Shown piece after piece: positions 10,115 to 28,443 of a stretch of DNA of 64,000 nt (positions are counted from its first letter, which is position 1; every line of letters begins with the position of its first letter). The position numbers and the translations under genes are program-made. The stretch is from contig CAZZHR010000002.1 of the NCBI GenBank assembly GCA_964654205.1, positions 65,800 to 129,799 on the forward strand, written 5' to 3'. This DNA is from an uncultured Candidatus Saccharibacteria bacterium (GTDB lineage Bacteria; Patescibacteriota; Minisyncoccia; Phycocordibacterales; UBA2100). Under the pieces are notes generated by a model. The model made no database searches. It had not been told where the DNA came from and was given only the letters and a program-made list of their open reading frames with translations.

Positions 10115-13100
10115 CTAAATTTCCATCCCGAGCATGAGCGCGAGGGCTTGGACGAAGCTGTTTGATGTGGCGGCAGGGGCGGCAGAATATTTGAACGGCT
10201 GCTCCGCGAACGCGGCGTAGACCATTGTGTCGCCGCTCGTGTTGAGGAAGGTGGTTCTTAACTTGAAACCATTGGCTAGAGAATCAATGACGTCTGCGGG
10301 TGCCGACTCTTGAGACGAACCATCGGCGCCCAAAACGCCACTTATTGGATTGTAGGTGTTCCTTGTTGTATCCAACATCCACCAACTACCCGTCGTTCCA
10401 ACCGCGGGCTTAAGCATGACAAACCGCGGCTTGAAGCCGGTGTAGACGAACGGACCGTCGGTCGAGCCATTGCCGGTGTAGGAGCCAAATGCCGACATGC
10501 CGGTCGTGGAGGCAAAGAGGTACGCCGCGTACTCGCTCCCGCCACCTACGCCGCCCGGTGTGCTCGAGGAATCGGTGAGTGCGCCGTTCTCCGTAAATGC
10601 TCCGCCTCGCCCCCTGTTGATGTGCCAATTGTCGCTCGTTCCAGAGAAGTACACATCGGGGACGAGTGTGGAACCGACCCCGATGACGGGCACGGGTTCG
10701 CCATTCGCGTCGATGAAGAAGCGCCTATTGGCTTCGACCGAGAGGTCCAGGCTCGTCCCGAACTTTATCCAAAGGTCTTTGATGTCTCCCGTGAGCTTGA
10801 AGCCCGCGTCCGGTTCCGCCCCCACCGCGAAGTTGCCTCTCGTCCAGTCGATCGTGTCGTTGGTAAGCGTGGAGCCGCCCGAATTGAAGTCGCTCACATC
10901 GTTGCGGTAGACCCAGGCGGAGCCGGTGTTTAGGTCGACCGAGAAGAGGTAGTGCACCCAGCCACTCGAGGCGAGCGTCTGCGTCGAGGAGTTCAGGATC
11001 ATGTCGAAGTTGTTGGACGCGTCGAGCCCCACGACCTGGATCACCTGCGTACCCGCCGTGCGTACGATGTAGAAGCCCGTGCCGAGGTCTCCCGTCGCTG
11101 CGATCGTCTGGTTGGTGCTATCTGCGCCCGTAATGTTGACCCAAAAAGAGACAGTTAACCGTTTGCCGTCCACGACGTCTGTGAGGTTTGCACCGCGCGT
11201 GAGGTAATCGTTGGTACCGTCGAAATGCGCGGCGCCGCCTTTGTTCACATCGGCATTCGTCCCCACGGTGAAGGCGCTTGCGGTAGGCGCGGTGTCGTTC
11301 CAGTAGGTCGCGTCGTCGGCAGTCGCAGCTGTGCTGTTGAGCAATAGATAGTCAGTCGCCGGTGCAGATGTATTGGACGAGTGATAGACCGCCCAATCGC
11401 CGGAGCCCGAAGCTTGTGTGTACGAGCGGAGCATCGCGCTCCCCTGATCGGCGATCGCCACGCTTGTGGCAGAGAGCGCCGCAACCGCGGGGTTCGGAGT
11501 CGTGCCGTCGACGATACCGCTCCCGTCGGCCACCTCTCTCCAATCGGTACCGTCGAAGGCGTACACACGGAGCTCGTTGGTCGTTGAGTCCACGAATGCC
11601 ACTCTGTTGCGGCCCAGCGCCGCCATGCCCGTCGAGCCTCCACTCGATTCGATTGTGAGAGAATTGCCCACCTGAGACCAATTCGTGCCGTCGAAATCAT
11701 ACGCGCGCAGCTGCTTTGTCCCCGAGTAGTCGTAGAGGGCTACGCGCGAAGCCGAGAGCGCCGCGAGGGAAGGGAGTGTGATGCCGCTGATGTTGAGCTC
11801 GTTCCCAGTCAGAGTCCAGTTGGTGCCGTCGAAATCATACGCGCGCAAGTCGTCGTTGGTGCCGTCGATAAAGGCTATGCGGTCGGACAGGAGCCCCGCA
11901 AGCGCGGGAGATCCCACGCCCGAGATGTTGAGCTCGTTGCCGGTCAGCGACCATGTAGAGCCGTTGAAATCGTATGCGCGCAAGTCGTCATTCCCGCTGT
12001 CAATAAATGCGACACGGCTCGAAAGCATAGTTGCGAGCGAGGGCGACCCTATACCCGAGATGCTGAGTCCGCTTCCTGTGAGAGACCAATTCGACGAGCT
12101 CAGGTCGTATGCGCGCAAAGACGCATTCCCGAAATCAACATATGCCACCCTCGTCGCGGAGAGCGCGGCAAGCGCGGGAGTATTGATACCGCTTATCGTG
12201 AGGCTGTTGCTCGTCTGTGCCCAGTCTCCGCGCACCTCTTTCACGAGCATGAAGTCCGGCGCTTTACCGAGCGAATGGCTCACCGTCCTGCTCTTACCCG
12301 TCCCCTTGTACGAGACGATGTCGAACCCGGCCTCCGCCGTCTCTTTCCAGAGCCATGAGATGTAGTTCTTGCCGCTCGTGTTGACGTTGGCCGAGCTCGC
12401 GCCGGAGCCGAGGCTGAAGCCGTTGTCGTCGTACGACGTGAGCGATTCCGTGTCGTCGACATCTTCACCGGCGGTCAGATTGGAGCTGAGCCACGCCTGC
12501 ACCCCGCGCAGAGCATCGAAGAGCGCATGGTTGGTCGAAGCGTCGGTACGGTTCTTTATCCACACGAGGTCGGGGCTAAAGCCGGTAACCGTTGTGCTTG
12601 TACCCGTCTGGTAGACAGACTTTGCCGCACCCGTGCCTGCGTACGCGATCGCATCAAAATAATTCTTCGGCACCACCACATCCGGCTCGGGCAAGTTGGC
12701 GGTCGAGAGTGCTTTGAAGCCAGAGGGCGGTTCGTATCTGAAATATCCCCCCGCCGCCGAGTAGTGCGTCGTCGTAGTTGTCCCTGGCTGACCAAAGTTT
12801 ATTGAAGCGCTTGCACCCGTGTAGACGGCGAGTGATGGAAATACAGGGTCAGCTCCGCTGAGTGTGGCGGCAGCTCCTGTGCCTCCTACTGGGTCACCAC
12901 TGTTCTGCCATGTCCCGTTTTTTGAGAAGTAAATCTTCTTGTTATCCAAATCAAGCGCTACACCGACGACATCGTTCGTTGTAAACGTATTGCCGTACGC
13001 GGCATTGGTCCCTCCGTTGTACGTCGTACCATCATGCCCGTAGTAGCTGATGCCCCCATTAGCAGACGAGCCGCCGGGAAATGCGCCGAGTGTCATCGGA

Positions 13101-14242
13101 GTGAACGCTGTGGAAGTTGCAACCCCGACGAGATAAAAATTACTGCCACTACTCTGTGCACCAGCTGTCACTTCCCAATACCATTTACCACTCGTGACAC
13201 CAATAATTGAGAGTGCCGTAAGAAAATTCCCAGCACTATGAGTCATACTCAAGTTGCCTTGAGAAAGAGTCAGCGAAGAGTTTTTGTAAATCGAGTTAAG
13301 TGTCGCAAACGCGTTCGTCGGGGTGTCGATGACTTGGTCGGTTGCGTCGAGGTTGTTGGCGGTCCAGTTGTTGCCGTTGCCGGATGTGTCGGTGCCAAGC
13401 GCCGCACTGTTGCCAAAGGCGAGCTTGAAGCCATTTGTCCCATACGTGCCCGTGTACGACTTCGGCCGCCAGTATCCATTGGCGTCGTACTCGCCGAAAG
13501 AGGTGGGCGTGAGCGCCTGCCCGTCGACAAAATGTAGGTCGGAGAGGTAGACATCAATCGAGCAACATGCACCCCCTTGTTGCTGACCGATACGATTGTT
13601 CGCATTGGCGAGCGCGAATTGGTACTCAGCGTTTTGTGCGGGATAATTCGCAGCGTCAAACGCCGTAATCTGCATCCCATCGATGTACATCTTCACTCTA
13701 TTCGCTGCAGTCGCATCTGTCGTGTCCCACACAACTACGACATGCATCCATTTTGATGGATCGCGAAAAAGTGCCGAGCTGCGAAGTTCGGCGGAAGTAG
13801 CCCCGCCGAAGGCGAAACTCAGGTTGTCCGCTGCAGCGCCGCCCGCCCCGAATTCAAGCCACGAAGAATTGCTCGACGAACCATCGTAGCCGGCAACTAT
13901 CGTTTGTCTCGTCCCCAAATTCCCCCTTTTTATCCACGTAGATATCGTTCCCTTCTTACGGTCAGCGGGTGCACCGGAGAATGTCTTGCTTAGGTTTGCA
14001 CTGTCATCGTCGTTGAAGCGAGCGCTGTTCGCGATCGTGTACGCCGCCTCCGCCTGCGGGAGTGTGAGAAGCGCAAACTGCGCGCCAAACCACGCCAGCG
14101 CGACAATCGCCGCCACAACCACCCGCCACCTCCACAGCCCGTTCAAAGCGTTCAAGGAGGCGTGCAAGGGGCGCCCTTGCACATGTGCAAGGGCGCCCCT
14201 TGCGCCGGAGATTTTGAGAAACTTGGTGAAGAGATTACTCAT
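10115..14242 (-). CDS. giant (1375 aa) signal-anchored surface protein: LamG, SPRY, six 45-aa repeats, LamG, plus three copies of a phage-structural-protein-like module
   Basis: One uninterrupted ORF with an N-terminal TM (VVVAAIVALAWFGAQFALL). Its domain signatures are listed as separate features. Its start forms an ATGA overlap with the RAYT stop. Confidence 0.9.
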   Translation of the reverse strand: MSNLFTKFLKISGARGALAHVQGRPLHASLNALNGLWRWRVVVAAIVALAWFGAQFALLTLPQAEAAYTIANSARFNDDDSANLSKTFSGAPADRKKGTISTWIKRGNLGTRQTIVAGYDGSSSNSSWLEFGAGGAAADNLSFAFGGATSAELRSSALFRDPSKWMHVVVVWDTTDATAANRVKMYIDGMQITAFDAANYPAQNAEYQFALANANNRIGQQQGGACCSIDVYLSDLHFVDGQALTPTSFGEYDANGYWRPKSYTGTYGTNGFKLAFGNSAALGTDTSGNGNNWTANNLDATDQVIDTPTNAFATLNSIYKNSSLTLSQGNLSMTHSAGNFLTALSIIGVTSGKWYWEVTAGAQSSGSNFYLVGVATSTAFTPMTLGAFPGGSSANGGISYYGHDGTTYNGGTNAAYGNTFTTNDVVGVALDLDNKKIYFSKNGTWQNSGDPVGGTGAAATLSGADPVFPSLAVYTGASASINFGQPGTTTTTHYSAAGGYFRYEPPSGFKALSTANLPEPDVVVPKNYFDAIAYAGTGAAKSVYQTGTSTTVTGFSPDLVWIKNRTDASTNHALFDALRGVQAWLSSNLTAGEDVDDTESLTSYDDNGFSLGSGASSANVNTSGKNYISWLWKETAEAGFDIVSYKGTGKSRTVSHSLGKAPDFMLVKEVRGDWAQTSNSLTISGINTPALAALSATRVAYVDFGNASLRAYDLSSSNWSLTGSGLSISGIGSPSLATMLSSRVAFIDSGNDDLRAYDFNGSTWSLTGNELNISGVGSPALAGLLSDRIAFIDGTNDDLRAYDFDGTNWTLTGNELNISGITLPSLAALSASRVALYDYSGTKQLRAYDFDGTNWSQVGNSLTIESSGGSTGMAALGRNRVAFVDSTTNELRVYAFDGTDWREVADGSGIVDGTTPNPAVAALSATSVAIADQGSAMLRSYTQASGSGDWAVYHSSNTSAPATDYLLLNSTAATADDATYWNDTAPTASAFTVGTNADVNKGGAAHFDGTNDYLTRGANLTDVVDGKRLTVSFWVNITGADSTNQTIAATGDLGTGFYIVRTAGTQVIQVVGLDASNNFDMILNSSTQTLASSGWVHYLFSVDLNTGSAWVYRNDVSDFNSGGSTLTNDTIDWTRGNFAVGAEPDAGFKLTGDIKDLWIKFGTSLDLSVEANRRFFIDANGEPVPVIGVGSTLVPDVYFSGTSDNWHINRGRGGAFTENGALTDSSSTPGGVGGGSEYAAYLFASTTGMSAFGSYTGNGSTDGPFVYTGFKPRFVMLKPAVGTTGSWWMLDTTRNTYNPISGVLGADGSSQESAPADVIDSLANGFKLRTTFLNTSGDTMVYAAFAEQPFKYSAAPAATSNSFVQALALMLGMEI
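10748..11236 (-). other. second LamG/concanavalin-like (Laminin_G_3-type) domain, aa ~1003-1165
   Basis: AAHFDGTNDYL...LTVSFWVN...GWVHYLFSVDLNTGSAWVYRND...FAVGAE fits the Laminin_G_3 pattern. Confidence 0.65.
11408..12217 (-). repeat. six tandem in-frame ~135-bp (45-aa) repeats, likely a beta-propeller
   Basis: Unit consensus LRAYDFDGTNW(S/T)LTGNELNISG(I/V)GSPSLAALSxxRVAFxDxxNDx. The GAAATCRTAYGCGCGCA motif recurs about every 135 nt on the plus strand. Confidence 0.85.
12788..13345 (-). other. SPRY/B30.2-like domain, aa ~300-485
   Basis: The TSGKWYWEV signature, then VVGVALDLDNKKIYFSKNG and FPSLAVYTGASASINFG, match the SPRY pattern. Confidence 0.7.
13508..14035 (-). other. first LamG/concanavalin-like domain, aa ~70-245
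   Basis: GTISTWIKR...WMHVVVVWDTT...VKMYIDG...SDLHFVDGQAL fits the Laminin_G_3 pattern. Confidence 0.65.
14163..14204. repeat. REP-like palindrome doublet: TGCAAGGGGCGCCCTTGCA-CATG-TGCAAGGGCGCCCCTTGCg
   Basis: Two 19-nt near-palindromes (8-bp stems) in inverted orientation form a 42-nt palindrome. It lies within codons 13-27 of the 1375-aa ORF, 35 nt downstream of the RAYT stop. Confidence 0.85.
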
Positions 14243-14901
14243 ACTTCGTCGAGCATTAATTCTCGGACTGTCGATTTCCGTGCGACGATGTCGTCGAAAG
14301 CGTCTTCAACGAAACGCTGGTACTCGCGCGCACTCTTGAAGTGCTCAAGGATTGTTGCCGTATCACACAATCCCCCGGTATCTGGCGAGAGGTACTCGGC
14401 ATAGCTACTATGCGGCCACTTTCGAGCGTCTCGCACAAGCTTCGCCACTTGGGGATTCACATGAATATAGGCCGAGAGGTGTTTGAGTTGCGTATCGTCT
14501 ACCACATGCACGGCCTTGATGCGATCCTGAAATACATGTCCCACATGATCGTACTTGCGATTGAAGTACATCGAGTAGCTCGTCAGTAGTTTCAGAAAAA
14601 GTTTACTAATCGATACATCTTTGTTCTGTCGTATGAGAAAATGGAAATGATTAGGCATAAGACAGTACACAGCAATCGAGAATGCATCTCTTTCGAATGG
14701 CTCGATGCGAATCTGGACGCGCTTCCCGCCGGTGTGCAAGGGCGCCCCTTGCACATCGCGACCGAGAGAGCGCATAAGTCGGTCTAGGAAAACTCGTGCA
14801 TCCTCATCATCTCGAAGGATGTCCATCTTGCCATTGCCGCGGCTGAAGAGGTGGTACCACTCTCCTGTCGAGAACTCTTTGTAGTCGCGTGAATTTGTCA
14901 T
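14239..14901 (-). CDS. REP-associated tyrosine transposase (RAYT) / IS200-like Y1 transposase homolog
   Basis: WYHLFSRGN, the HUH motif CLMPNHFHFLI, GHVFQDR and YIHVNP (catalytic Tyr region). There is no second IS gene. Confidence 0.85.
   Translation of the reverse strand: MTNSRDYKEFSTGEWYHLFSRGNGKMDILRDDEDARVFLDRLMRSLGRDVQGAPLHTGGKRVQIRIEPFERDAFSIAVYCLMPNHFHFLIRQNKDVSISKLFLKLLTSYSMYFNRKYDHVGHVFQDRIKAVHVVDDTQLKHLSAYIHVNPQVAKLVRDARKWPHSSYAEYLSPDTGGLCDTATILEHFKSAREYQRFVEDAFDDIVARKSTVRELMLDEV
14735..14753. repeat. third copy of the REP-like palindrome, inside the RAYT ORF and in frame
   Basis: TGCAAGGGCGCCCCTTGCA on the plus strand. It encodes VQGAPLH between the N-terminal strand and the HUH motif. 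Confidence 0.85.
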
Positions 14902-14911
14902 ACTCGATTAG

Positions 14912-17900
14912 TCATCTAAAGCCCGTGGCAGCCGCGCCGAATACGACGAGCGAGCTGGTCGCATTGGTCGCGACAAATGAGACGAGGTCACATTGGTTGG
15001 CCGTCGTGGTGAGTGTCGGTGCGCTTCCACCCTGCCAGCGCACGACCGCTGGCCAGGTCAGTGTGCGGCTTCCCGTGCCGTCTTGGCACACCACGAGACG
15101 GAGGATTTGCCCCGCGATGAAATTGGAGAATGTAATCGTGCGGTTGCCGCCGAGTGTCACCTTCTGCTGGTTGCCTTCAAGCCAGTTGATAGCCACGGTC
15201 GCGCCGTCGGAGAGACTCCTTTCCACCGTGGTGATAGCGCCACCCGCACCCACCGCAAATTTCGCAAACGGCGTCGATGTACCCACACCCACGTTGCCGT
15301 TGGCGTTGATGACAAAGAGGGACTGCGCTGTGGTGGAAGCGACCTGTATGAAGTTGGTCGAGCTATCCTGCGTCTCTATCGTGAGCTTGGCCGCAGGGGT
15401 CGTGGTGCCGATTCCTGCCGCTGTCTCTACATAGAGCTTGCCCGCTCCAGTCGGCGACGTGGGGCAGCCGGATGCGCAGACAAGGAGGTTGTCGTCGGAG
15501 AGCAGAATGTTTTTGTTGGACGTGTGTATCGTAAGGTCGCCAGTCGAGTCCACTTGGAGCGAGGCGACCGTGGAATCATTGTACGAAATCGCTACCTGAG
15601 GATTCGCCGCTGCAGCCGTCACCGAGAACTTGCGGTACGGCGATGTGGTGCCGACACCGAAGAATCCGGCACTCGTGGCGCGCATCACCTCGGTGAGCGC
15701 GCCACTTTGCAGTGTCGAGAACACGAGGTCGCCCTTCCCGAGCCCGCCGAAGTTCTGTTGCAAGATGCTCGTGATTGCAGAAGTCGTCGTACCCGTGCCG
15801 GTGACATCGAGCGCGCGGAATGAGAGCCGCGATGCGGTCGATGTCGCGCTCGCCGCATTGGTGAGGTAGAGCTGGTCGGCGGTCGCGCCGGAAGATGTGT
15901 TGTAGACATCGAGCTTCGTGCCCGGCGTCGTCGTACCGATGCCGACATTGCCCGTGCTGGTGATGCGCATTCGCTCTTGGCTCGACTCATATCCACCAGT
16001 CCTAAACTGAATACTGTCGGAGCCGCCTGATGCAACATTCCCGTTGGTAAAGAGCACCAGACTAGTATTCGAACCGAAACTCGTGTTTCCGCCGAGACCG
16101 TATCCGACACCAGACCCGTACGCACGGAAGTAGCCTGTCGCAGTATCGCTATGTACAGTGTATGTGCTCTGACCATTGCTATTTGCATTCGTCACCGTGA
16201 CCCCGTCGACGCTCGCTACATTGCTGTACACAGTGAGTTTTGTAGACGGAGTCGTCGTCCCTACCCCCACGTTGCCGGTGTTTGTCACCGCAAAGAGCGA
16301 GCTCGTCGCGCTCGCGGTCGAGCTCGCTATCTCGAAGAGCATCGTATTGGTCTCGCCCGACAGTGCGTGCACTGAGAGCTTAGCCCACGGCGACGACGTG
16401 CCGATACCGAAGCGCGCATTGACCGTATCCCACGTGAGCGTACTCGACGCCGCCATCACGCCGCCGTAGTTGAATTGTATGTTGCCGTTGCCGCCTGCCG
16501 GAGCCGAGCCGCCGGATGCGAGGAGGGAGCCGGAGAAGTATGTGTAGACTGCCGAACCATCGACAGCTGTACCCGTTGAAAGCACCGCTGCTTCGAGATA
16601 GTCGGATGTTCCATTCATGTCGACAATGGTGGTTACTTGCGCCGCATCTGCACCACCCGATCGATAGGGACCGTTTGCTATCGCGACACCGTTCTTACGG
16701 ACAGCTGCCTGACAGTTGTTTGTGGTATTTGTACATCCAACAGACGCGACAACGATATACTTGCCGGCTACCGTAGGTGTGAAGCGGTTGGTCGTTAGGT
16801 CAAAATTGTTGTTGGTATCGTAAGTTTCAGTCGTCCAATCGACCACAAGTACCGTATCGCTCACAGTGGTTGTCGCCGACCCATTGCGATGCACATGGAA
16901 CGCTACCGTAGAAGAAGCGGTTCCAACCGTGCGGTTCGTGTAGACCTTGACCGCGAATCCGCCTGCGCCGCCTGCGCCGCCTGCGCCTCCAGTGCCCGCA
17001 TTTCCAGCGCTACCCCCGGAGCCAACGGTGAAATAGAAAGTCCCCGTCGGACTGCCTACAAGCTCGTACGCGTATCCTCCGCCTCCACCTCCGCCTCCAC
17101 TCCATACGTTGTTGAGATCATTGATTCCGCCGCCAGCCCCTCCTCCTCCGAACGCGTTGCCTGCGCCGCCTGCTGCCGTAGTACCCGCTCCGCCACCCCC
17201 ACCGCGGGCACCATTGCCCCCCGCTCCTCCCACTGCGTACAGATCTTGCGTCTCCCCACCATCCGCATCAATACCAAGCGTGAGTCCGCCTGCACCACCA
17301 ACGAGATTTACTTCGCCACCGGAGCCAGAACCGCCAGATGCCGCAGGCCCATTGGAGCCAGACCCACCGCCTCCGCCCGTCGCACTTAAGTGCGGAGAGG
17401 AGCATGCGACAGAATTGCTTCCGAAGCATGTCGTACCTCCTACGCCACCATTGCCGCCGTTGCCTCCACCGCCACCCCCTCCACCGCCGCCCCAAACCTC
17501 CACTTCTATATATGACGTATCGCTCGGGAGCGTGAGCGTGCCACCGGAGAAGCTCGGTGCGCTGCCGGGGTCTCCGGTGAAGACCACCGACGAGGTTCCC
17601 ACAGTGGAAGTCGCGTATGTTCCTATGAGCGTGTTGCCACCACCTCCGCCTCCACTCGAGCCGCTCCCCGTCCCCGCACACTGTCCGCTCGGGAGCAGGA
17701 AGCAGCCGCTCGTGAGTTGGACGCCACCCGCAAAGGTGGATGTTGCCGAGCCGGTGATATTGAGGAGTGTTGATTGAATGCCGCCAGAGAATGTTGTGGT
17801 GGAAGGCGACCCAAACGTCGCTGCGCCGGTGGATGCCGAGAACGAGAGCGCGGCTACCGTAGAAGTCGACGAGTGCGTCGAGGTGGCGAGGTAGAAGGTG

Positions 17901-20900
17901 CTGCCGATGTTGCGGAGTGTCCAGAGATTGCTGCCGAGCCCGTCCGAGAGCGCGAGCTGCGGACCTGTCGAGCTCGCGACCGTAAGAATATGGTACGGTG
18001 TCGTCGTACCGATGCCGAACGTACCGTTGAAATAGCCGAGACCGTTGTCGAGAATGCGGAAGCGCGTCGTCGAGGCGGAGTCGAAGAATTCCGTGAGTAT
18101 GCCCGTGCCCGTCCCAGATCCCTGCACTGAGAGCTTAGCCCACGGTGACGTGGTGCCGATTCCGACGTTGCCCGTCGAACCCTGAATGAGCATTCTCGTC
18201 GCGTAACTCCCGGCCGTTGCGTTGGCCTTGAAATGGAGGTCGCCATTGTTGCCCGTCTGCCCTATCTCCGCCCAGCCCGTGCCAGTACCCGCGCCGCCGG
18301 TCGTGAATATCATGCTGCCGACGTTGCCTGTACCGGCTCTGTTGAGGAAGAGTCGGAAGTCGCCCGACGTGTCAAAGGCCGCACTCGTACCGAAGACGTC
18401 GAGCTTACTCCCCGGCGTCGTCGTACCGATTCCCACGCTGCCGGTGCTCTTTACCGCCAAAAGGTCACCGCCGGATCCGCTCGATGAGTTGAGCTGCAAG
18501 AGGTCCGCGCTGGAACCGGTATGAAGACTTCCAACGATGACGGGCTTCGCGATGTCGTGCTCGTTGTAGATGTTGAAGATACCTGTAAAGGTCGGGGAGG
18601 TTTTGCCAAAACCGATCTCCCCCGTGGGACTGACGATGAAGGCGTTGACGCCGTCGGTCCTGTTCTGGAAGAAGAGCGCCCCAGCAGGAGTATTGCCGCT
18701 ATCCCCCGCGAGGAAGCCCCATTTCTTACCGCCGGAGTCCGTATTCTGGAGATTGAACCACGGATCGCTGCCGCTCACATGGAACTTCGCGTCGCTTGAA
18801 GCTGCGCCCACGCCGAGCAGACCCTGCACGAGTAGGTTACCTGTCGTCGTCGCGCCGCCTGAGATCGTGAGGCCGCCCGCCTGTGTGCCGTCGCCGATGG
18901 TGGAACTTGCTGTGACACCGAGGCCGCCAGTTACAGCGAGTGTGGTCCACGGACTTACGTTGCCGATACCGACACTTCCACCACCGCTTTGAAGGACGAG
19001 ATTATTCCATGCACCGGCACCGCTGCTCTGTGCGCTGAGTCCAAAATAAGTATTGCCCGTGCTCGCGCCCGACGCTACAAAGAGCACCGAACCGGCTGAA
19101 CCAGAGACCCAATCGCTCGTCGTTATCGCAAGTTGTGAAGGCGCATTACCGCCAGTAATTTGCAACTTACCGTTGGTCGGACTCGCCGTGCCGATACCGA
19201 AGTTGCCGCTGATGCGGTCGACGAAGACGAGCGGCGAGGAGGTACCGACGGTAAAGAGCGAGGTCGATGGCGGCGTCGATGTGCCGACGGCGAGACCGCC
19301 GGAGGCGATTGTGCTCGTCGCCGTCGTCGAAGTGGCGACGAAATATGAAGCGTCGACGAATGACGTAAAGCGAGCATTGCCACTAACGTGAAGCTTATAG
19401 GTGGGAGAGGTATTACCTATACCTACAGAGCCAGCTGTATTGAGGAACAATAAGTCTGTCGCCGCGGCGCCCGTGCTGATGGAAAATCCAGAGCTATCGT
19501 TACCACTGATTCCGACTTTCCATTCTGGAGTCGTACCGCTTCTGACAAAGCTGACATTCGGTGCCACATTTCCGTTTATCAAAATTCCTTGATACGTCGT
19601 TCCTGCAGTCACATGGAGTGGCTGCTGCGGATTTGTTGTTCCAATTCCAACCCGACCGCTTGGGTTCCAAATGCCGGAGCCCGGGAAGAATGCGGTGCCA
19701 GAGACAGAGAGCGCGGTTGAGGACGCATACGGGAACGTGGACGCTGCTGTGGTAGAAGTCGCAGTGAAGATTGGCGCGGTGATGGTGTTGTATGCGGTGA
19801 GTGCGCCGCGCAGGAGTGAGCTGCCCGCGACTGAGAGGTTTCCGCTTGAGTCGATGGTCGTCGTCGCGCTGCCGCCGAAGTACGCAGTGCCAAAGTTGGA
19901 GAAGTTAGTACTCGACGCATTCCCCGAGAATATCTGGAGCGCCGTCCAGTTGTTGGAGACACTTGTGTCCACGGAGCCCCCACCGCCCGTGATACAAGCA
20001 CCGTCTACGGCAAAGCATCCGTCGGCGAGGTTTATTCCATTGGCAAATGTGGTAGTAGCCGAGCCGGTAAAGGTAATATCGCTCAGCGTAGTCCCAGAAA
20101 GGGTACCGCCCGTAATCGTCGAGTCGGAGATATCGACGCTGCTGAGCTGATCGATTTTGTTTGTGTGCGCGACCGTCTGATACACATTGGTAATACTTGC
20201 CGACTGCGCTGTAGAGACACCGGCGACGAGGCTTGTGAGTCGCTGTTCCACGGCTGCGATCCGCGTATCGAGGTCGGCATCCGTGATGCCGCCGACAGAT
20301 GCAACTATGCGCTCGGTCTCGACGATACGTTCAACGACTCGTTCGTTTGTCACCACAGTCGATGTGCTCACAACAACAGGCGTTTGCTGCGATTGCGCTA
20401 CGATAACCTGTGCGCGTTCATACGGATCCATCGTGTCGATGAATCCCGCATCGAGCGGTGTAAGTGCGAGCGAGTTCGTCGCGTCACTCGGGAACACGAT
20501 GTTGTAGACGAACGTGTCGACGCTCGTGTTGACTGCCTTCGCGATGGTGCGCAGCGCATCAGGGAAGAAAGAAAGTGTCGCGCTCGATACTTGTGCGAGC
20601 GCGACCTCGGGATTCTCAACCGCATAGTACGTCGCATCACTCGCCGCGCGCACCGCGCGCGTCGCCACTTCATCAACTCGTACGAGCGACTGCGCGACGC
20701 TCGCCGCCATCTCGCGCGTAGTCTCCGCTGCAAACCGCGCATAGGCTGGGTCGACAAACGCATACGTGCCAAATGTCATGGTGAACGCAACGAGCATCGC
20801 GACAAACTTCTGCAGAAACTCCGTCGCGGGAGAAATCGTGTACACCGGCACGTGCACATGTGCGTGACTCAAAGTACGAGCAACCGCCTCGTGCACGCCC

Positions 20901-21349
20901 GACGGCGCCGCTGCGATAGACGGCATCGCGTGAGCGACCTTCGCGCTCTGCGCCACCGCCGCAGCCTTCAATTTTTCCTGCACATGCTTCGCGTGCGCCG
21001 CCAACGTCTTCGTCACAGGTATTTGTCCGCTCACAGAAAGGGCGCTCTCGACACTCTTTACACTTTCAGATTTCAACTTTATATCTTGTGGCTTATTCTC
21101 CACCCCGTGATATTCACGCACCCGTTCATCCGACAGCTGCTCCCTGCGGATGGTTTTCGCATGCTCTTGCTCCACGAGGTATTTTTGGAGCGAGCCCTCA
21201 TCGACGTACCAGTTCTTGCCGATTCTTCTACCGCGAAGCCTTCCATCACGGCAAAGACGAGCGATGTAGTCGCGAGAGAGCCCTGCACTGGATGAAGCAT
21301 CCCCGGCCGAGAGGTGCTTCTGCCCGTCGAAATATATTTCGTTGCTCAT
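14912..21349 (-). CDS. giant (2145 aa from ATG 21349) membrane protein: cytoplasmic excisionase-type HTH, one TM, then an ectodomain of GIGTTxP repeats, a glycine-rich domain and a C1q-like domain
   Basis: One uninterrupted ORF. Modules are listed separately. I prefer ATG 21349 (MSNEIYFDG) over GTG 21430 because the paralogous module in the next gene starts at the same relative position. Confidence 0.9.
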   Translation of the reverse strand: MSNEIYFDGQKHLSAGDASSSAGLSRDYIARLCRDGRLRGRRIGKNWYVDEGSLQKYLVEQEHAKTIRREQLSDERVREYHGVENKPQDIKLKSESVKSVESALSVSGQIPVTKTLAAHAKHVQEKLKAAAVAQSAKVAHAMPSIAAAPSGVHEAVARTLSHAHVHVPVYTISPATEFLQKFVAMLVAFTMTFGTYAFVDPAYARFAAETTREMAASVAQSLVRVDEVATRAVRAASDATYYAVENPEVALAQVSSATLSFFPDALRTIAKAVNTSVDTFVYNIVFPSDATNSLALTPLDAGFIDTMDPYERAQVIVAQSQQTPVVVSTSTVVTNERVVERIVETERIVASVGGITDADLDTRIAAVEQRLTSLVAGVSTAQSASITNVYQTVAHTNKIDQLSSVDISDSTITGGTLSGTTLSDITFTGSATTTFANGINLADGCFAVDGACITGGGGSVDTSVSNNWTALQIFSGNASSTNFSNFGTAYFGGSATTTIDSSGNLSVAGSSLLRGALTAYNTITAPIFTATSTTAASTFPYASSTALSVSGTAFFPGSGIWNPSGRVGIGTTNPQQPLHVTAGTTYQGILINGNVAPNVSFVRSGTTPEWKVGISGNDSSGFSISTGAAATDLLFLNTAGSVGIGNTSPTYKLHVSGNARFTSFVDASYFVATSTTATSTIASGGLAVGTSTPPSTSLFTVGTSSPLVFVDRISGNFGIGTASPTNGKLQITGGNAPSQLAITTSDWVSGSAGSVLFVASGASTGNTYFGLSAQSSGAGAWNNLVLQSGGGSVGIGNVSPWTTLAVTGGLGVTASSTIGDGTQAGGLTISGGATTTGNLLVQGLLGVGAASSDAKFHVSGSDPWFNLQNTDSGGKKWGFLAGDSGNTPAGALFFQNRTDGVNAFIVSPTGEIGFGKTSPTFTGIFNIYNEHDIAKPVIVGSLHTGSSADLLQLNSSSGSGGDLLAVKSTGSVGIGTTTPGSKLDVFGTSAAFDTSGDFRLFLNRAGTGNVGSMIFTTGGAGTGTGWAEIGQTGNNGDLHFKANATAGSYATRMLIQGSTGNVGIGTTSPWAKLSVQGSGTGTGILTEFFDSASTTRFRILDNGLGYFNGTFGIGTTTPYHILTVASSTGPQLALSDGLGSNLWTLRNIGSTFYLATSTHSSTSTVAALSFSASTGAATFGSPSTTTFSGGIQSTLLNITGSATSTFAGGVQLTSGCFLLPSGQCAGTGSGSSGGGGGGNTLIGTYATSTVGTSSVVFTGDPGSAPSFSGGTLTLPSDTSYIEVEVWGGGGGGGGGGNGGNGGVGGTTCFGSNSVACSSPHLSATGGGGGSGSNGPAASGGSGSGGEVNLVGGAGGLTLGIDADGGETQDLYAVGGAGGNGARGGGGGAGTTAAGGAGNAFGGGGAGGGINDLNNVWSGGGGGGGGYAYELVGSPTGTFYFTVGSGGSAGNAGTGGAGGAGGAGGFAVKVYTNRTVGTASSTVAFHVHRNGSATTTVSDTVLVVDWTTETYDTNNNFDLTTNRFTPTVAGKYIVVASVGCTNTTNNCQAAVRKNGVAIANGPYRSGGADAAQVTTIVDMNGTSDYLEAAVLSTGTAVDGSAVYTYFSGSLLASGGSAPAGGNGNIQFNYGGVMAASSTLTWDTVNARFGIGTSSPWAKLSVHALSGETNTMLFEIASSTASATSSLFAVTNTGNVGVGTTTPSTKLTVYSNVASVDGVTVTNANSNGQSTYTVHSDTATGYFRAYGSGVGYGLGGNTSFGSNTSLVLFTNGNVASGGSDSIQFRTGGYESSQERMRITSTGNVGIGTTTPGTKLDVYNTSSGATADQLYLTNAASATSTASRLSFRALDVTGTGTTTSAITSILQQNFGGLGKGDLVFSTLQSGALTEVMRATSAGFFGVGTTSPYRKFSVTAAAANPQVAISYNDSTVASLQVDSTGDLTIHTSNKNILLSDDNLLVCASGCPTSPTGAGKLYVETAAGIGTTTPAAKLTIETQDSSTNFIQVASTTAQSLFVINANGNVGVGTSTPFAKFAVGAGGAITTVERSLSDGATVAINWLEGNQQKVTLGGNRTITFSNFIAGQILRLVVCQDGTGSRTLTWPAVVRWQGGSAPTLTTTANQCDLVSFVATNATSSLVVFGAAATGFR
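16517..16906 (-). other. C1q/TNF-like jelly-roll domain (130 aa)
   Basis: VAFHVHRNG...FDLTTNRFTPTVAGKYIVVASV...AAVRKNGVAIANG...VDMNGTSDYLEAAV...YTYFSGSLLA follows the C1q globular-domain pattern (F.A...F...G.FT.P..G.Y.F...KNG...L..GD.V...F.G.LL). Confidence 0.6.
16940..17515 (-). other. glycine-rich domain of the type seen in phage minor-tail / ALK-like Gly_rich proteins
   Basis: Opens with IEVEVWGGGGGGGGGGNGGNGG, has internal EVNLVGGAGG and FYFTVGSGGSAGNAGTGGAGG, and closes with GGFAVKVY. Confidence 0.6.
21173..21349 (-). other. excisionase-type (HTH_17-like) module at the N-terminus of the giant protein
   Basis: IYFDGQKHLSAGDASSSAGLSRDYIARLCRDGRLRGRRIGKNWYVDEGSLQKYL fits the pattern of HTH_17, a MerR-superfamily helix-turn-helix (hEaA..lGvs..ti.rl.r.G.l....iG..w.i....l..yl). 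Confidence 0.6.
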
Positions 21350-21650
21350 GAGCGATGATGCCTGTGGCCGGACGCACGATTTATCTAATATTCTACTACT
21401 CTTTTCGCCAATTGGACGTGTATCGGACACTATTACGTGTGGACAAGCCTAAGCAGAATTTGTACCGGACATTTTTTACATTTTTTCCCACAAGTTCGTA
21501 TCAACGCACAAAAAATTCTCCGTTTTTTTGAAAAAAAGCCTCTTCACTACAACCTCTCACCTCTTACCTACCCCCCTCCTCCCGGCCGACTCGGGCATCC
21601 GAGGAGCGACGTAGAGCGGTATTCCGCGCGTGTGTGGCGCAGAAAATGAA

Positions 21651-27786: not shown

Positions 27787-28422
27787 CTATCGTTCTCCCA
27801 AACCGAAGTGCACTCGCAAGGGTTTATCGTACTCGATTGCGTCCGCAATAATGTATCTCACCTCCGTTCGCAGCGATGCGTCTAGCTTCAGAAGCGTTAT
27901 GATTTCTTCACAATCATACGGGTGCACCCATACGCTGTTTTGCAATCGGTGAAAACCAAGTCTCTTTAATATTTCGCGTACACGATCTCGCGTAGAGCGC
28001 CGCGCATGCGGAATGTCGAATATCACGACTCGCCAACGTCCGTCCCATCGACGCGGCCTAGGTATTTCTACGGCCGAAAGCCGGATGCGTTCCGCATGTG
28101 ACTTTCCCCTCTCCGTCAGTATGGGGTAACGTTTGCCCGAGTGCCGCATAAACTCGACCATCCCTTTTTTCTTCAATCTCGAGAGTGTCTCCCGCAGCCT
28201 CTGCGTGGGCTGCGGGGGCAGGATTACATCAAGGTGTTCTCTTTTGATGAGCGCAGCGACTTTCGGCGCCATCACCGCTACCGTGAGAATTCCTCCGAGA
28301 GCGAGCGTACCTATCACAGCTCTTTCTATCGATCCGCGTCTCAACCGCAGACGAACTCCACTCTCCTGGGATACGCGCGATTCTTGCTCACGCCTCTTCT
28401 GGGTATTCTGTTTTTGCCGCAT
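27787..28422 (-). CDS. PaaX-family-like regulator with a Cas2/VapD-fold C-terminal domain
   Basis: LRETLSRLKKKGMVE (winged-helix-like), then WDGRWRVVIFDIPHARRSTRDRVREILKRLGFHRLQNSVWVHPYD, typical of PaaX C-terminal or Cas2-like domains. ATG 28422 has TACAAT 6 nt upstream. TTG 28437 is an alternative start. Confidence 0.7.
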   Translation of the reverse strand: MRQKQNTQKRREQESRVSQESGVRLRLRRGSIERAVIGTLALGGILTVAVMAPKVAALIKREHLDVILPPQPTQRLRETLSRLKKKGMVEFMRHSGKRYPILTERGKSHAERIRLSAVEIPRPRRWDGRWRVVIFDIPHARRSTRDRVREILKRLGFHRLQNSVWVHPYDCEEIITLLKLDASLRTEVRYIIADAIEYDKPLRVHFGLGER

Positions 28423-28428
28423 GAGTGC

Positions 28429-28434
28429 ATTGTA
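28429..28434 (-). promoter_or_regulatory. -10 box TACAAT 6 nt before ATG 28422 (leaderless geometry)
   Basis: The minus strand reads gtTACAATgcactcATG. Confidence 0.45.
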
Positions 28435-28443
28435 CAAACTTGT

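Follow-up and report, generated by a model that had tools for sequence, protein, structure and literature searches.

The window analysed here, 64,000 nt of a contig from an uncultured Candidatus Saccharibacteria bacterium, contains on its minus strand a gene for a fibre protein of 2145 residues. Gene coordinates below are window positions, and residues (aa) are numbered along this 2145-aa open reading frame (ORF). The protein, which is enriched in Gly, Thr, Ser, and Ala, consists of an HTH_17-like N-terminus, a hydrophobic helix, a stalk, two blocks of GIGTxxP repeats separated by a glycine-rich and a C1q-like domain, and a C-terminal tip domain (Table 1). Overall it is best explained as a chromosomal, membrane-anchored, trimeric surface fibre used by a bacterium of the Patescibacteria (candidate phyla radiation, CPR) in host recognition, a reading that we consider probable.

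Domain architecture of the fibre protein

The initial annotation listed at least 14 copies of a tail-fibre repeat, G(I/V)G(T/N)(T/S)xPxxKLx(V/I), on both sides of a central insert. The number and distribution hold for the relaxed pattern G[IVF]G[TNK]xxP, which occurs 14 times, with eight copies upstream of the insert (starting at aa 568, 643, 718, 794, 913, 973, 1063, and 1112) and six downstream (aa 1648, 1695, 1803, 1898, 1979, and 2021), whereas the full pattern is present in only 7 of the 14; an additional degenerate copy is seen at aa 846. Composition-preserving shuffling of the protein (2000 shuffles) yielded on average 0.008 copies and at most one.

The label of tail-fibre repeat is correct, and a structural role has been described for the motif, since both blocks match PHROG tail-fibre families 9942 and 18345, the repeat regions match the Bdellovibrio bacteriovorus Bd2133 fibre in a sequence search of the PDB (8OND, E=1.5e-7), and the motif corresponds to a capping loop reported for the 'mosaic adhesive trimeric' (MAT) fibres, where the consensus V-G-G/N-pi-x-x-P-x-x-x-L belongs to intertwined trimeric beta-helix modules (PMC10769870). 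Such modules with capping loops also occur in S74-type phage fibres, in particular the T5 L-shaped tail fibre and the K1F endosialidase (PMC10769870). A second fibre entry, 8OJN, is matched in the PDB as well. The alignments with Bd2133 are centred on the motif itself (tGlVGInTAAPlqKLHV and aGNVGIGATAPTAKLEV), and at the sequence level beta-helix modules with this capping-loop consensus are recognizable in the fibre. The GIGTxxP motifs therefore appear to be the capping loops of trimeric beta-helix modules, as in MAT and S74-type fibres.

The 130-residue segment at 16517-16906 had been proposed to follow the strand pattern of the C1q/TNF jelly roll. The proposal is borne out by the Pfam score of the isolated segment, by a structural model, and by the structures that this model resembles. 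Scanned in isolation, aa 1475-1625 align with the whole Pfam C1q profile (PF00386, positions 1-127 of 127) at 25.2 bits (E=2e-5, cut-off 23.7); in the scan of the whole protein the alignment is also full-length but scores 17.8 bits. An initial search gave 23 short proteins sharing the segment's conserved C1q motifs, four of them annotated as C1q, and the AlphaFold2 model built on these homologues (pLDDT 86.9) contains the ten-stranded gC1q jelly roll. The best 50 Foldseek matches of the model in the PDB are nearly all C1q/TNF-family heads (E down to 6e-9), the top ones being C1QL1-3, the C1q domain of Caprin-2, the C1q head, cerebellin, and the NC1 domains of collagen VIII/X, with TM-scores of 0.75-0.86 by target length. 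Foldseek also matched the TNF-like knob of the central spike of phage 812 (9EUL), and a PDB sequence search with the segment gave no match at E<=10. The segment is thus predicted to be a true C1q-like jelly roll. It falls in a large prokaryotic/viral subfamily with the motifs YDTNNNF, RFTPTVAGxY, KNG, and MNGTxDYxE. With the metazoan gC1q domains (C1QL1-3, Caprin-2, C1q A/B/C; PF00386) it shares the fold and the full-length Pfam alignment, but the identity is 17-23%, and the classic layout of a C-terminal trimeric head on a collagen-like stalk is not seen: the domain lies inside the chain (aa 1483-1610 of 2145), and there is no collagen Gly-X-Y stalk in front of it.

Directly upstream in the chain lies the glycine-rich block, which begins with IEVEVWGGGG at aa 1281 and finishes with GGFAVKVY at aa 1470. 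Its earlier span, 16940-17515, was off by at most two residues at the start, and the limits given for the C1q-like segment and the C-terminal piece were likewise accurate to a few residues. A database search found about 35 homologues, six of which already carry a precomputed PF21722 annotation. They share the non-Gly motifs TxCFGxNSxACxSP, GGxxNLxG, and PxGTYxYxVGxGG, the last beta strand, and a Cys-x7-Cys loop with flanking beta strands. These conserved motifs and strands, together with a confident predicted fold, exclude the view that the block is low-complexity sequence only. It is a genuine phage-type domain, as first suggested, with the TNF-like sandwich and stacked glycine-rich motifs of solved phage fibres. 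Its phage relatives are the cyanophage Pam3 tail fibre gp24 (7YPX) and the 'tail wing brush' gp33 of mycobacteriophage Bxb1 (9D93). The Pam3 unit, at the distal, receptor-binding end of its trimer, is a TNF-like sandwich with loops that build a glycine-rich lattice of four layers, and its authors point to a similarity with phage S16 gp38 and ALK (PMC9608196). Membership in the ALK-type Gly_rich family, also part of the initial annotation, was not supported: PF12810 gave no Pfam match at E<=1, and the Foldseek match to ALK had an E-value of no better than 4.2. Unlike in Pam3 gp24 and Bxb1 gp33, where the domain is terminal, it is internal here, with 670 residues after it; in most of the approximately 35 homologues it forms the C-terminal end of the protein. 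Three homologues (P0025, P0028, and P0031) appear to be circularly permuted relative to the window copy, with query segments in the order 3-33, 156-197, 28-170.

The glycine-rich and C1q-like domains were modelled separately. A joint alignment of their homologues, in which the C-termini of glycine-rich proteins had been misaligned into the C1q part, was dropped. Similarly, the sole match of the glycine-rich profile in a PDB sequence search was rejected as a spurious poly-Gly alignment to a fimbrial construct.

The C-terminal ~100 residues were thought to form a separate distal knob, and their homologues agree with this. The last 111 residues used as a query retrieved 2688 homologues at E<=0.01, most of which are 100-190 aa long, have the domain at the C-terminus, and carry a precomputed PF26209 annotation; with phmmer, E-values against proteins so annotated go down to 3.5e-46, and the domain is C-terminal there as it is here. 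In PHROG, the tip also matches tail-fibre families 9017, 22179, 7760, and 3904 at their C-terminal ends, and some of its homologues have a phage Mtd_N-type N-terminus. This part of the protein is thus a separate and very common tail-fibre tip domain. A literature search on PF26209 turned up nothing.

At the opposite end of the protein, the isolated N-terminal 82 residues match Pfam HTH_17 at 28.0 bits (cut-off 27), versus only 21.3 bits in the whole protein, and the cut-off is passed by the N-termini of four of seven orthologues. Among all 18-aa windows of the protein, residues 182-199 have the highest hydrophobicity (Kyte-Doolittle 1.83); they form its only strongly hydrophobic stretch, and the helix is kept in the orthologues L002, L003, and L004. 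A classical N-terminal signal peptide therefore appears to be absent, since the N-terminus is HTH_17-like and the sole strongly hydrophobic segment lies at aa 182-199. The membrane anchoring assumed at the outset is plausible, given this conserved helix; we infer a single-pass, N-in topology.

The HTH_17-like N-terminus (21104-21349, minus strand) is the best conserved part of the fibre across orthologues. A DNA-binding-type, presumably cytoplasmic fold would thereby be joined to a giant extracellular fibre.

The stalk between the helix and the first repeat block (aa 200-554) has no match in Pfam or PHROG, and contains a helical-looking stretch, VVERIVETERIV / AAVEQRLTSL, and a CFAVDGAC loop. 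In the PHROGs scan neither the N-terminal 554 residues nor the glycine-rich segment was matched, and the NCBIfam scan gave no family for any fibre module. Four short-range cysteine pairs are present, at aa 445-452 (CFAVDGAC), 1216-1224 (CFLLPSGQC), 1308-1316 (CFGSNSVAC), and 1539-1546 (CTNTTNNC), the first two of which are followed by a glycine run within a few residues downstream. These pairs may form disulphide-stapled loops, which would agree with an extracellular placement. For the gene start, the ATG at 21349 was preferred over a GTG at 21430, 27 codons upstream, because the orthologues align starting at the ATG.

Table 1. Features of the fibre gene and its immediate neighbours (window positions)
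Feature	Residues (aa)	Position	Strand	Basis
Fibre gene, stop codon included	1-2145	14912..21349	minus	ATG at 21349, stop 14912-14914
HTH_17-like winged helix, presumed cytoplasmic	17-58	21176..21301	minus	Pfam HTH_17 on isolated 82 aa
Single probable transmembrane helix, FVAMLVAFTMTFGTYAFV	182-199	20753..20806	minus	Kyte-Doolittle hydropathy
Proximal extracellular stalk, family not assigned	200-554	19688..20752	minus	Sequence reading
Repeat block 1, putative beta-helix modules, 8 GIGTxxP capping-loop motifs	555-1130	17960..19687	minus	Motif count, 8OND homology, PHROG
43-nt direct repeat encoding GIGTTSPWAKLSV, proximal cassette edge		18123..18165		Repeat comparison
Variable central cassette	1083-1676	16322..18103	minus	Orthologue alignment
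Glycine-rich domain (TNF-like beta-sandwich and polyglycine lattice)	~1262-1472	16934..17566	minus	
C1q-like jelly-roll domain (predicted)	1483-1610	16520..16903	minus	Pfam C1q, AlphaFold2, Foldseek
43-nt direct repeat encoding GIGTSSPWAKLSV, distal cassette edge		16368..16410		Repeat comparison
Repeat block 2, putative beta-helix modules, 6 GIGTxxP motifs	1640-2040	15230..16432	minus	Motif count, PHROG
C-terminal tip domain (distal knob)	~2045-2145	14915..15217	minus	Homologues with precomputed PF26209, PHROG
Upstream neighbour, 333 aa, HTH_17 (two matched stretches) and one transmembrane helix		21696..22697	minus	Syntenic in relatives
Downstream partner, 1375-aa single-pass protein, DUF7483 and SPRY		10115..14242	minus	Pfam; syntenic in L002 and L006

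The central cassette and its modules in other proteins

The closest orthologue of the fibre, in L002 (49-57% identity), aligns only to aa 1-1082 and 1677-2144, and carries in place of the intervening part 799 residues of unrelated sequence with no Pfam domain. The C1q-like and glycine-rich modules are absent from the orthologues in L002, L003, L004, and L006, and that of L003 has a T4 Gp34_trimer domain instead. The centre of the fibre is thus a swappable cassette, as orthologues without the insert hold other sequence there. The two 43-nt direct repeats at its edges, which encode capping loops, are 91% identical, compared with 60-70% for other copies of the motif, and on the basis of this one comparison the cassette has possibly been exchanged by recombination at these repeats. 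A second repeat pair, 15904-15958 and 18394-18448, shows 84% identity over 55 nt.

The occurrence of the two modules elsewhere was analysed by searching 1.84 billion representatives exhaustively with HMMER, using aa 1255-1625 as the query; 5248 proteins were found at E<=0.001, and module maps were made for the best 150 of them. Many of these 150 have C1q-like modules inside the chain, in tandem runs of up to 10, or dispersed among GIGT motifs (as in rCrrCrrCrCr), and the glycine-rich modules are likewise internal and multi-copy (for example, rrrGGrrrrGGrG). Several of the 150 hold both kinds, including one from Kaiserbacteria (OGG76609.1). The direct glycine-rich-to-C1q junction is rarer: within this set only two proteins have it, P0316 and P0198, both of which carry S74; P0198 is a fragment, with 53% identity over the junction. 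Three further proteins, P0184, P0236, and P0318, were rejected as long two-domain matches, the alignment having extended through Gly/Ser/Thr-rich linkers.

Proteins made up for the most part of tandem C1q-like modules were also observed. An ORF of L008 (2517-7055, plus strand), from a metagenome-assembled genome (MAG) labelled Alphaproteobacteria, contains three modules, and arrays of 7, 8, and 10 modules are found among the metagenomic proteins P0265, P0179, and P0181. Such arrays may fold as trimeric beads or as pseudo-trimers within one chain.

TNF/C1q-like tips on bacterial fibres have already been published (PMC10769870), as have C1q domains in pelagiphage receptor-binding proteins and in fibres of extracellular contractile injection systems (eCIS) (PMC3909814, PMC12923769). 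The opinion that a nested C1q-like head is unusual is not borne out by these reports and by the best-150 module maps, and the nested module is therefore not exceptional. The use of internal C1q-like or polyglycine modules as 'beads' of a fibre was not described in the literature that we searched.

Function of the fibre and its genomic setting

Among the closest known systems are the MAT fibres (Bd2133, 8OND; Bd2439; Bd2734; Caulton et al. 2024, PMC10769870), which are likewise chromosomally encoded bacterial surface fibres with beta-helix modules, the same capping-loop motif, direct sequence homology to the present protein, and interchangeable binding modules, TNF/C1q-like folds included. The variable C-terminal tip of MAT fibres, an S74 chaperone or another fold, has its counterpart here in the distinct tip domain, and since the Pfam scan found no Peptidase_S74 match in the fibre protein, it resembles the MAT 'NS74' subtype. 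[quoted passage not shown] In contrast, the present fibre comes from the Patescibacteria, is 2,145 aa long, has an HTH_17-like domain followed by one hydrophobic helix at its start, apparently lacks an N-terminal signal peptide, and carries two binding-type modules in mid-shaft in addition to the tip. The pelagiphage receptor-binding proteins and eCIS tail fibres (PMC3909814, PMC12923769) similarly use a C1q-like domain as a presumed recognition module on a phage-derived fibre, and the 23 short proteins found first are of this kind; unlike in these short fibres with a terminal C1q domain, the module is embedded here in a giant membrane-anchored cellular fibre.

The fibre is very probably a homotrimer. 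Its HTH_17-like domain would lie in the cytoplasm, and the helix at aa 182-199 would anchor the chain so that ~1,950 residues face outward. The shaft would be formed of intertwined beta-helix modules with V-G-I-G-T-x-x-P-x-x-K-L capping loops at their edges, like those of the Bdellovibrio MAT and S74-type phage fibres, and its length would be of the order of 100 nm if scaled roughly from a MAT fibre of ~920 aa whose model measures ~550 Å (PMC10769870). It would bear three independent modules of the phage receptor-binding type, namely, a mid-fibre pair made of a Pam3-gp24-type TNF-like/polyglycine domain with the C1q-like jelly roll directly after it, and the tail-fibre tip domain at the distal end. 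With these modules the fibre would recognize surface structures, probably glycans, of the host cell to which the episymbiont attaches, and its specificity would shift when the central cassette is swapped between lineages, possibly via recombination at the flanking capping-loop repeats.

The domain identities, the homologies, the synteny, and the variability of the cassette are established by the present analysis. Several points weigh against the functional reading. Pfam Gly_rich_2 (PF21722) scores 12.8 bits on the glycine-rich block (E=0.12), under its cut-off of 24.3 bits, and the Pfam support for the C1q-like domain is marginal, lying just above the cut-off for the isolated segment and below it in the whole protein. 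The transmembrane helix was derived from a hydropathy scan only, with the average of 1.83 over 18 aa falling below 1.6 over 19 aa. Trimerization, topology, the kind of ligand, and a part in recognizing the host are inferred, and the episymbiotic lifestyle is taken from the phylum and not from the present genome. Finally, classic gC1q/TNF modules have their N- and C-termini together at the base of the trimer, which complicates their placement on a continuing shaft, and because of this geometry the internal C1q-like module may form a lateral lobe or a kink instead of an axial head. A trimeric fibre with a non-terminal TNF-like module has already been solved, namely, the central spike of the Staphylococcus phage 812 (9EUL), whose knob lies inside the chain and precedes another domain; that spike differs in being a part of the virion baseplate and in having a coiled coil, not beta-helix modules, before the knob.

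An unlikely explanation, although the strongest of the alternatives, is a structural fibre, envelope or S-layer-like, or a protein of cell-cell cohesion with no specific ligand, in which the C1q-like and glycine-rich domains serve only as nodes of trimerization and stability. TNF/C1q modules are strong trimerization units, the tandem arrays of related proteins, with as many as 10 C1q-like modules, resemble structural beads, and ligand-binding residues could not be identified in the fibre. However, the Gly-rich/TNF-like unit and the TNF-like tips of solved relatives are proposed to bind receptors (Pam3 gp24) or have been shown to bind glycans (Bd2439: GlcNAc and a Proteus glycan), and the cassette differs among close orthologues, which is typical of specificity determinants and not of scaffolds.

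The genomic setting bears on the origin of the gene. Relatives of the fibre are found in MAGs labelled Paceibacterota, Kaiserbacteria, Saccharibacteria, and Patescibacteria. The order of genes for SecA, GatB, the 333-aa HTH_17 membrane protein, the fibre, the DUF7483/SPRY protein, signal peptidase I, and an immunoglobulin (Ig)-like surface protein is kept in L002 and partly kept in L004, L005, and L007. The 333-aa protein is a paralogue of the N-terminus of the fibre. A DUF7483/SPRY gene also follows the P0184 fibre gene, and the fibre and the DUF7483/SPRY protein may form a conserved functional pair. Other window genes that were checked, encoding GAPDH, a split transketolase, a PfkB-family kinase, a Wzy_C/TPR protein, and glycosyltransferases, are housekeeping or envelope-related.

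Some further observations concern these neighbours. The DUF7483/SPRY partner lies at 16746-21065 in L002 and at 10978-13398 in L013, a different contig where it follows an unrelated C1q-bearing S74 fibre. Between the fibre and DUF7483 genes of the window there is an ORF for an IS200-like Y1 transposase (220 aa, 14239-14901, minus strand), which overlaps the start of the latter gene by 4 nt; it is missing at this position in L002 and has homologues near the fibre gene in L006. Next to SecA, at 27787-28437 on the minus strand, there is a 216-aa protein that contains a PaaX_M / Cas2-like domain. No RNA family of Rfam reached its gathering score across the 64-kb window.

A chromosomal tail-fibre gene of a phage or prophage, or the gene for a tailocin or eCIS fibre, would account for phage tail fibres being the closest characterized relatives of all extracellular modules, for the location of P0179, with its seven tandem C1q-like modules, in a phage-tail-like gene cluster, and for the transposase ORF directly downstream. 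Nevertheless, this explanation is very improbable: the synteny with housekeeping genes recurs in several Patescibacteria MAGs, no capsid, terminase, baseplate, sheath, or tube gene was seen in the 20 ORFs scanned against Pfam over ~36 kb, and the N-terminus is a helix-turn-helix with a membrane helix and not a baseplate-attachment domain. The prophage hypothesis was rejected on synteny and gene content; the fibre is a chromosomal cellular gene, as housekeeping synteny is kept and phage structural genes were not seen. Just as improbable is a membrane-tethered signalling protein whose HTH_17 domain is a DNA-binding output controlled (for example, released) when the fibre engages its target, since, although the HTH_17 N-terminus is the part of the fibre most conserved among orthologues and is shared with the adjacent 333-aa membrane protein, its HTH_17 scores are marginal, DNA binding, cleavage sites, and a regulon are all without evidence, and we know of no precedent for a sensor of 1,950 residues.

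Implications for host recognition in Patescibacteria

The chimeric fibre type and the TNF/C1q-like fibre tips were known; what is new is a variant of them in a group where host recognition is poorly understood. Type IV pili have so far been the main candidates for the way in which ultrasmall episymbionts find their hosts and attach to them. How Patescibacteria identify a host is largely unknown (PMC12206443). A far-reaching and improbable extension of the host-recognition reading is that chromosomal, membrane-anchored fibres built of phage receptor-binding modules are the main determinant of host choice in the Patescibacteria, with several heads per shaft, a central cassette recombining at the capping-loop repeats, and the HTH_17 domain, which has a second copy in the neighbouring gene, reporting contact inward, in which case the fibre would be both adhesin and sensor. 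As all the modules have solved relatives, binding by the isolated glycine-rich, C1q-like, and tip domains is directly testable.

The design of the Bdellovibrio MAT fibres extends to the Patescibacteria, and many of the best 150 of the 5248 related metagenomic proteins have C1q-like and polyglycine modules of the receptor-binding type as 'beads' inside the chain. The locus is a concrete, conserved, and syntenic candidate for host recognition in these bacteria.

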